Part shown: positions 35,372 through 36,109 of the stretch, piece after piece
How the letters are laid out: each line of letters opens with the position of its first letter
Numbering within the stretch: position 1 is the first letter of the stretch
DNA from: an uncultured Phycisphaerales bacterium
GTDB lineage: Bacteria > Planctomycetota > Phycisphaerae > Tepidisphaerales > Tepidisphaeraceae
Direction of reading: 5' to 3'
Assembly: GCA_963758525.1 (NCBI GenBank)
Contig: CAVWVQ010000003.1
Location: 1,984,001 to 2,048,000 of the forward strand
DNA: 64,000 nt
Translations under genes and position numbers: made by a program
The notes under the pieces: model-generated
Told to the model about the DNA's origin: nothing
Seen by the model: only the letters and a program-made list of their open reading frames with translations
Database searches by the model: none

Positions 35372-36109
35372 ATGCGAGTGCAGGACAGAATGGCTTTCGC
35401 GCAAGCCGCCCGAACGTTCAACTGCTGGATCCTGGTTCGGCGCACGAATCCGGATTCGTTGAAATACGTCGGCCTGCCCGGGTACACGCCCAAGCCGATT
35501 GACTGCAAGGCCAAAACCGCCAACAACCCGTCGCATCCGCTGGCCGGGTTGGTAGTGGACCCGGTCCGCGTCCCCCAGGCCTTCGAGAGCGACAAGCTGC
35601 CGAAGGTGAAACAATGCTGGGAGGCCTTCTCAAGCTCGGTTATGGGGAACGGCGGCCGTTACGCGGTTGTCACGGAGAACGTTTCCAGGCATTTCGGCTG
35701 CGTCACGCTGGGCGGGAAATTCGTGCACGGCGACTACGATCTAAAGGACATCATTCTCGCCGACCAGTTGCACCGAAACCTCGCCTCGGTGGAAATGCTG
35801 CAGGGTCAGCCGCACATGCGCGGGCCGCGGGTATTGCAGGTGCAGCAGTTCGTCAACGCCCGCATCGGCGCCGACATGGTTCAGCACGGCGGCGAGGCGC
35901 AATTCGCCGATCACGCGGATGAACCGATCGACTGCTTCGGCCCCGACATGAGCTGCCGCGTGTTCCTCAACGAGCTGGCGGTCCGCTCGTGGTACCACGA
36001 AATCAATCGGGAAGTCATCGACCTGAAGAAACACCCCGCGTCATCCTCCGGAGCCGGCGGAGGCTTCCAGGGCTGGACGCCCCGGGTTATCCGCGGCGGA
36101 AAGGAATAA
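35372..36109 (+). CDS. Stand-alone class II (anthrax EF/CyaA/ExoY-like) nucleotidyl cyclase domain; candidate T6SS effector
   Basis: AFAQAARTFNCWILVRRTN; GYTPKPIDCKAKT; LAGLVVDP; HGDYDL; MVQHGGE, in the same order as the EF/ExoY catalytic motifs (aligned from recall). Confidence 0.72.
   Translation: MRVQDRMAFAQAARTFNCWILVRRTNPDSLKYVGLPGYTPKPIDCKAKTANNPSHPLAGLVVDPVRVPQAFESDKLPKVKQCWEAFSSSVMGNGGRYAVVTENVSRHFGCVTLGGKFVHGDYDLKDIILADQLHRNLASVEMLQGQPHMRGPRVLQVQQFVNARIGADMVQHGGEAQFADHADEPIDCFGPDMSCRVFLNELAVRSWYHEINREVIDLKKHPASSSGAGGGFQGWTPRVIRGGKE

Follow-up and report, generated by a model that had tools for sequence, protein, structure and literature searches.

Class II nucleotidyl cyclases, the group of anthrax edema factor (EF), Bordetella CyaA and the ExoY proteins, are described in the accessible sections of PMC9223806 as a handful of animal-pathogen toxins that are inactive in bacteria and are switched on by calmodulin or actin, which they bind through two regions, switch A and switch C. 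The same sections place ExoY-like homologues in gamma- and beta-proteobacteria and do not mention type VI secretion systems (T6SS). Remote EF-like families do have a precedent: the available part of PMC10584675 notes a structural cluster that resembles EF, lacks annotation and is enriched in algae. In the portion of PMC3482391 that is available, a study of polymorphic toxins, the word "cyclase" refers to ADP-ribosyl cyclases only and "edema" occurs 0 times, and the available parts of PMC13577199 and bioRxiv 10.64898/2026.09.28.754971 mention no EF-fold cyclase effector. Our search of the full-text literature found no description of the cyclase family reported here or of a T6SS-delivered EF-fold cyclase; effector tables in supplements or subscription papers could list members.

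The gene studied here encodes a 245-aa protein, P0001, in the genome of an uncultured Phycisphaerales bacterium (Planctomycetota; G000). Marker families typical of the phylum agree with this placement indirectly: 27 SBP_bac_10/DUF1559 matches, DUF1501 and a BBP2 porin, whereas Planc_extracel gave a single match, below the cut-off. The gene lies in a stretch of 64,000 nucleotides, referred to below as the window, among the following T6SS genes (window coordinates):

23222..32496, plus strand: T6SS core genes tssA, tssB, tssC1, tssC2, tagJ/impE, tssE, tssF and tssG, both tssC genes being in pieces
32533..35277, plus strand: clpV/tssH, in four segments over three frames; an ORF that stops at 35277 holds the C-terminal portion of ClpV
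35372..36109, plus strand: minimal EF/CyaA/ExoY-fold nucleotidyl cyclase core of 245 aa (P0001), a predicted T6SS cargo effector, from ORF, model and profile
36273..36761, plus strand: hcp/tssD, the sole copy matched in the genome
36754..45919, plus strand: vgrG, a pentapeptide-repeat gene, PAAR/DUF6531, Rhs and DUF2169, forming the spike and a second effector module

Gene order along the window is sigma factor, tssA, tssB, tssC1, tssC2, tagJ, tssE, tssF, tssG, clpV, cyclase, hcp, vgrG, pentapeptide gene, PAAR/DUF6531, Rhs and DUF2169. The cyclase gene is present in a single copy in the host genome, has a GC content of 0.625 (GC3 0.82) similar to that of the adjoining T6SS genes, and showed no promoter- or terminator-like site around it. 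It is separated by 94 bp from clpV upstream and by 163 bp from hcp downstream; a usual-size immunity gene would therefore not fit, and neither gap wholly contains an ORF of at least 100 aa. The adjoining immunity gene that marks an antibacterial effector-immunity pair is absent beside P0001, as a previous reading of the sequence alone (the sequence-only reading) had claimed.

The host genome carries one set of T6SS tail genes. Its tssK, tssL and the N-terminal domain of TssM lie at C3:2.83-2.84 Mb, about 0.8 Mb from them, and the IcmF-related model PF06761 had no match. At that second site (L173, G000:C3:2829000-2842000) the TssM N-terminal domain occupies one frame and overlaps a 1165-aa ORF without a Pfam match. 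Directly 5' of tssA, a FliA/WhiG-like sigma factor (window 22442-23155) is a possible dedicated T6SS regulator. The cluster is flanked by a 676-aa ORF after DUF2169 (window 46064-48094) with no Pfam or NCBIfam match and by a 1179-aa Sel1-repeat protein whose start looks kinase-like by eye (window 18281-21820), and three large tandem surface-type proteins with DUF5122, SdrD_B and CARDB domains occupy window 2971-16411. Frame breaks affect tssC1, tssC2 and clpV (three) within window 24952-35277, and PAAR/DUF6531 and Rhs likewise seem split (window 40600-44759). Non-T6SS genes near window 486-2760, 51928-52503 and 57414-58406 appear broken too. Assembly error is a plausible cause, and given several frame breaks the host T6SS locus may be decaying; a crude count outside the window found 1 of 18 genes broken, too few to separate assembly error from decay.

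As a single sequence, P0001 had no match in Pfam or NCBIfam and none of relevance among PDB sequences; profiles were needed to find its kinship with EF and ExoY. The profile of its 120 closest sequences matched Vibrio ExoY only, and weakly; a broader profile of 121 sequences matched Vibrio ExoY (E 8.5e-10), EF (E 5e-6) and CyaA (E 0.008). Pfam Anthrax_toxA (PF03497), which does not match P0001, matched 4 of the 120 close homologues at E<=1 (best 1e-5). The AlphaFold model of P0001 (pLDDT 86.9) retrieved EF, CyaA or ExoY at all of Foldseek ranks 1-24, with a best E of 2.8e-7 and the next unrelated match at E 0.85. Structural comparison (VIA) aligned the model with EF over 209 residues (Z 14.6, 4.0 A, covering EF 307-637), with CyaA over 210 residues (Z 14.6, 4.3 A), with Pseudomonas aeruginosa ExoY at Z 12.9 and with Vibrio ExoY at Z 10.7-12.3; the next fold stood at Z 4.4. 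The predicted model has the two-subdomain CA/CB catalytic fold of class II nucleotidyl cyclases, and the predicted fold of P0001 is that of EF, CyaA and ExoY, as the sequence-only reading had proposed.

That reading had also located five motifs in the ORF, and they start where it put them, at residues 8, 37, 57, 119 and 169, which yields K41, K46, K48, D121, D123 and H172. We derived equivalences to EF from the 121-sequence profile alignments and the residue numbering of PMC9223806, and scored conservation in two sets, the 120 closest sequences (A1) and 121 divergent members (A2). R23, K41, K48, D121, D123 and H172 align with EF R329, K346, K353, D491, D493 and H577, whose roles, like that of N583, are set out in section 5.4 of PMC9223806, a source available in part. 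The features within the gene are as follows (window coordinates):

35438..35440, plus strand: R23, aligned with EF R329 (phosphate binding); 120/120 in A1 and 121/121 in A2
35492..35515, plus strand: Motif I, K41-x4-K46-x-K48 (EF K346...K353), with the K-x4-K-x-K spacing of Vibrio ExoY
35732..35740, plus strand: D121-Y-D123 metal-binding motif (EF D491/D493), each aspartate 121/121 in A2
35774..35824, plus strand: residues 135-151, a family-specific beta-hairpin, RNLAxVExxxGxxHxRG, replacing the longer switch A
35885..35887, plus strand: H172 (EF H577), 119/121 in A2
36074..36106, plus strand: low-confidence C-terminal tail WTPRVIRGGKE, at the place of switch C

The Motif I lysines are nearly as constant (K41 in 120 and K48 in 119 of the 121 A2 sequences), so the claimed catalytic residues K41, K48, D121, D123 and H172 are each kept in 119-121 of the 121 divergent members.

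The regions that serve as activator sensors and anchors in the known toxins are another matter. The spacing from D123 to H172 is 49 residues in P0001 and at the family median (111 of 121 sequences with the motifs found), against 84 in EF and 77 in ExoY, and the switch A region of the family is about 35 residues shorter than in the known toxins. The counterpart of EF K622 is the near-invariant R213. Of the 120 closest sequences, 106 stop no more than 10 residues from this position, before switch C (630-658); so do 50 of 121 in the broader set. At the other end, 102 of 121 members have at most 15 residues before the catalytic core, and P0001 itself starts at the core, in keeping with the earlier claim that it lacks an N-terminal extension. 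P0001 has a tail of 32 residues where switch C would lie, modelled at a pLDDT of about 55-60. The motif at its end, (V/L)IxGG(K/R), preceded by a variable linker, is shared by 22 of 269 collected proteins and occurs at loci L036, L055 and L058, and was found on none of the other T6SS-linked genes of the host genome; it may resemble the tails of ClpX adaptors. The calmodulin- and actin-activated subfamilies are defined by a complete sensor (switch A) and anchor (switch C); P0001 lacks these in full and, on these regions, does not belong to them. The sequence-only reading implied that calmodulin or actin is the activator; the shortened switch A and the loss of switch C in 106 of 120 weaken this, and activation by either protein through the known mode appears unlikely from the sequences. 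The 135-151 hairpin is a candidate site for another activator.

Homologues are numerous. At E<=0.001, 371 proteins of 134-429 aa were retained from 806 candidates, and the family comprises 413 clusters at 50% identity. Among GTDB genomes 139 relatives were confirmed, the best 80 of which were fetched; they are mostly Acidobacteriota, with Planctomycetota, Bacteroidota and others. Metagenomes gave 369 confirmed loci, of which 80 were fetched. The family is thus not specific to planctomycetes, most of the loci found being from Acidobacteriota. Only G007 matched among 60 relatives of the host, and as a long form, so the gene is not conserved in the lineage. The class of G360 gave 1 match in 301 genomes, the centre genome only, which is uninformative. 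Searching for longer forms returned 1 of 7997 candidates, a weak result; fusions were found through the set of 50%-identity clusters. A phage origin is unsupported, with 0 relatives confirmed among 87 pattern matches in viral contigs. The host phylum also holds a 395-aa frame that is more canonically EF/ExoY-like (L178:1453-2640, G898; PF03497 E 2.8e-18) and distinct from the minimal family.

The link to T6SS, proposed earlier for one locus, proved far stronger than that locus shows. With near-duplicates removed and ClpV not counted as a T6SS-type gene, the DNA fetched for 121 non-redundant loci shows such a gene at 29 of them (19 of 69 from genomes and 10 of 52 from metagenomes); the 92 without one include many short stretches. 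Of the 80 fetched genome loci, 60 have no T6SS-type gene nearby, and in 56 of these 60 genomes TssC is encoded elsewhere (47/50, 5/5 and 4/5), being absent in 4. Evenly sampled, the class of G063 (Terriglobia) has TssC in 49 of 251 genomes and the cyclase family in 7, all 7 carriers being TssC-positive (Fisher p 7.5e-6; 3.8e-5 when the centre genome is left out; kin not being independent). The host-phylum sample has TssC in 66 of 301 genomes and a family-profile match in 5, again all TssC-positive; among the five are G000 itself, a long form and a protein closer to canonical EF. The co-occurrence counts take in related genomes and are raw for genome size. PF05943 matched in 0 of 5 Bacteroidota-type genomes, whose loci hold DUF4123, PAAR or vgrG and whose sheath is presumably a divergent subtype. 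In a quick tree (91 rows), the loci adjacent to T6SS genes are dispersed, with 16 changes of state, at least 4 of them forced by well-supported branches. The T6SS link is family-wide, and the cyclase family occurs almost only in T6SS-bearing bacteria.

Within T6SS loci, the cyclase occupies effector slots. It follows DUF4123 (L056, L058; with one small gene between in L047 and L127), PAAR (L002, L030), hcp (L076), Tae4 or clpV (the window, L044, L144), and precedes hcp (the window, G897) or vgrG (L030, L035, L124, L144, L170). The domain also forms the end of polymorphic toxins: it occurs behind a pretoxin HINT domain (P0198) and in fusions with papain-fold toxin domains (P0132, P0133, P0185) and with VgrG3-like C-terminal domains. 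Near a type IV coupling-protein gene, L062, L065:7934-11746 and L078 encode multi-domain proteins with a cyclase domain, the one in L065 paired with a papain-fold Tox-PL domain, in genomes that encode TssC. A gene with a SecA_DEAD domain lies directly 3' of the cyclase within the T6SS cluster of L002 (L002:10668-12686).

T6SS effectors without an immunity gene usually have a eukaryotic target or an activator found only in the target. No partner gene recurs beside the stand-alone Acidobacteriota and Planctomycetota copies among 127 non-redundant loci. Nearly all of these copies, like the gene in the window, are partner-free, which by this rule suggests that the target, or at least an activator present nowhere else, is eukaryotic or confined to the target cell. 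We favor, at a probability of about one half, the reading that P0001 is a T6SS cargo cyclase aimed, in its partner-free form, at eukaryotic microbes, probably soil protists or fungi, the case for a eukaryotic target resting on the absent immunity gene. The compact, signal-less protein of 25-27 kDa would be loaded onto Hcp or the VgrG/PAAR spike and injected into these microbes by the neighbouring T6SS. There, R23, K41 and K48 would bind the triphosphate and D121, D123 and H172 the metal, as in EF, and NTP would be converted to cNMP and PPi. The enzyme would not be turned on by calmodulin or actin via the known surfaces; it would be basally active or respond to another factor of the target cell, perhaps through the 135-151 hairpin. 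Since it would be the eukaryotic target that holds the activator, or else the vulnerable pathway (cAMP-PKA signalling), the producer could do without immunity.

Antibacterial or trans-kingdom use is a serious rival, if a rather unlikely one for P0001. Here an activator-free cyclase would drain ATP or flood competitors with cNMP, and the producer would be guarded by an unlinked immunity gene, by low expression or by turnover via the C-terminal tail. The missing surfaces for eukaryotic activators speak for it, as do neighbours such as the antibacterial effector Tae4 (L050, L051) and two families of partner genes:

L047:9687-9947, L050:10672-10926, L051:10509-10763, L058:10735-10995 and L127:590-856: 84-88-aa family, in Bacteroidota-type spike clusters
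L179:2235-5414 (G007), L180:598-3793 (G925) and L183:2-2295 (G878): long proteins ending in the EF-fold domain, each followed by a gene of about 265 aa

The 84-88-aa gene, upstream of the stand-alone cyclase in 2 of these five loci and downstream in 3, is the only recurrent small neighbour among the 127 loci. It has 18 homologues, and the model of the 84-aa protein (pLDDT 93) found no structural match above Z 4.9, with weak SH3-like rows. It is a candidate immunity gene or chaperone; it is absent from L059, and its place between DUF4123 and the cyclase in two loci means that it could be a chaperone, both of which count against the antibacterial reading. The second family first appeared in G007 and G925, where proteins of about 790 aa end in the cyclase domain and are directly followed by the ~265-aa gene. 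A search of the phylum sample with this gene matched G925 and G878 (2 of 301). Its copy in G878 likewise stands behind an ORF with the domain at its end (hhalign probability 93, E 3.2e-7); this long protein had escaped the family search, and its likeness to that of G007 is limited to the C-terminal domain. A fourth copy of the gene, on the minus strand at L144:9732-10538, comes after an ORF whose last 79 residues resemble the end of the domain by eye. A third partner family, drawn from the downstream genes of L064 and L075, was rejected as these are unrelated. Neither partner family has a Pfam or NCBIfam match.

The layout of the long proteins is that of a toxin and its immunity gene; they and the ~265-aa gene are a candidate new toxin-immunity pair and suggest that some branches act in bacteria. 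The partner-bearing related domains include members about 45-55% identical to P0001, and the earlier label of "anti-eukaryote" is accordingly weakened for the family as a whole. For P0001 itself the case is thinner: the long forms sit on a long branch of the tree, the stand-alone Acidobacteriota and Planctomycetota copies have no recurring partner, and neither partner family was found in the host genome, which is 90.9% complete.

It is less likely still that P0001 is a T6SS effector that uses the EF fold for a different chemistry, for instance to attach a nucleotidyl group to a protein or to make an unusual nucleotide. The asparagine of switch B (EF N583, ExoY N297) is not kept in the family: residue 178, six past H172, is Tyr in 109 and Phe in 10 of the 120 A1 sequences, and chemistry or substrate may therefore differ from EF. 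Switches A and C, which contact the base in EF, are reduced, and C45, G59, L60 and W83 are invariant residues specific to the family. Identity to the solved cyclases is 15-22%, and there is a weak likeness to minimal nucleotidyltransferases at Z about 4, within background. Against this, all seven strong structural matches of the model are nucleotidyl cyclases, and every phosphate- and metal-binding residue is kept.

Least probable is the alternative raised by the sequence-only reading, that of an unsecreted, intracellular and cofactor-independent cNMP source regulating T6SS expression or firing: most loci do lack a partner gene, many copies lie far from a T6SS cluster and some, flanked by FHA/kinase genes and PAAR-vgrG, are read from the opposite strand (L016, L027, L028, L101), but it fits poorly with a cyclase that is carried by a minority of TssC-positive genomes (7/49 in Terriglobia, 5/66 in the host phylum), has no fixed position and shows toxin-type fusions and DUF4123 adaptors yet no sensor or regulatory domain fusion and no recurrent cNMP-receptor neighbour, a pattern that would better suit an exchangeable effector.

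More broadly, and tentatively, the family could be a widespread T6SS arsenal built on the bare EF core without need of calmodulin or actin, with some branches antibacterial and accompanied by two new immunity families and others, that of P0001 among them, directed at protists or fungi. If so, it would include the first T6SS-delivered and the first antibacterial class II cyclase, and would be a present-day stand-in for the activator-free ancestor of EF, CyaA and ExoY, before these toxins acquired switches for host factors. Hundreds of core-only, T6SS-tied relatives of about 220 aa in environmental bacteria, some of them paired with genes that look like immunity genes, would bring the fold into warfare between microbes. 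With them one could test directly whether the core works in the absence of a host activator, by what route the activator switches arose, and which targets the T6SSs of Acidobacteriota and Planctomycetota have; a core of this small size, together with new natural inhibitors, would also be of use in resolving the dispute over the catalytic mechanism.

Among known systems, the toxin-immunity layout has its analogues in the polymorphic toxin and T6SS effector-immunity systems, which share with the family a C-terminal toxin domain after HINT or variable N-termini, a conserved partner gene downstream and DUF4123 adaptors (available part of PMC3482391), and in ARC-tox, cited in the accessible text of PMC13577199. 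The best profile match, the ExoY domains of Vibrio MARTX toxins (PDB 8BJJ/8BO1/8BR1, 7P1H), shares the K-x4-K-x-K, DYDL and xxHG motifs with P0001, but has about 400 aa against 218-245 aa in the minimal family. It is activated by G-actin through sensor and anchor regions that are short or absent in the P0001 family, and is delivered inside a type I-secreted MARTX toxin and not by a T6SS (accessible sections of PMC9223806). P. aeruginosa ExoY (5XNW, 7P1G) is, with the same fold, a stand-alone injected effector; it is type III-secreted, has a disordered N-terminal leader and is activated by F-actin according to those sections of PMC9223806, whereas P0001 starts at the core, and the D214-H291 spacing of 77 in ExoY compares with 49 in P0001. 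The cyclase domain of Bordetella CyaA (1YRT, 1ZOT, 2COL), again of the same fold, is the calmodulin-activated part of an RTX toxin, and P0001 has no RTX moiety and reduced switch regions. The core of B. anthracis EF (1XFV, 1K8T, 1K90) finds counterparts in P0001 for R329, K346, K353, D491, D493 and H577 at 16% identity; P0001 lacks the protective-antigen-binding and helical domains, the D493-H577 spacing of 84 is reduced to 49, the H351 position is Lys and the N583 position Tyr/Phe, and switch C is absent in most family members. Set beside these toxins, the family is a core-only, T6SS-tied class II cyclase family.
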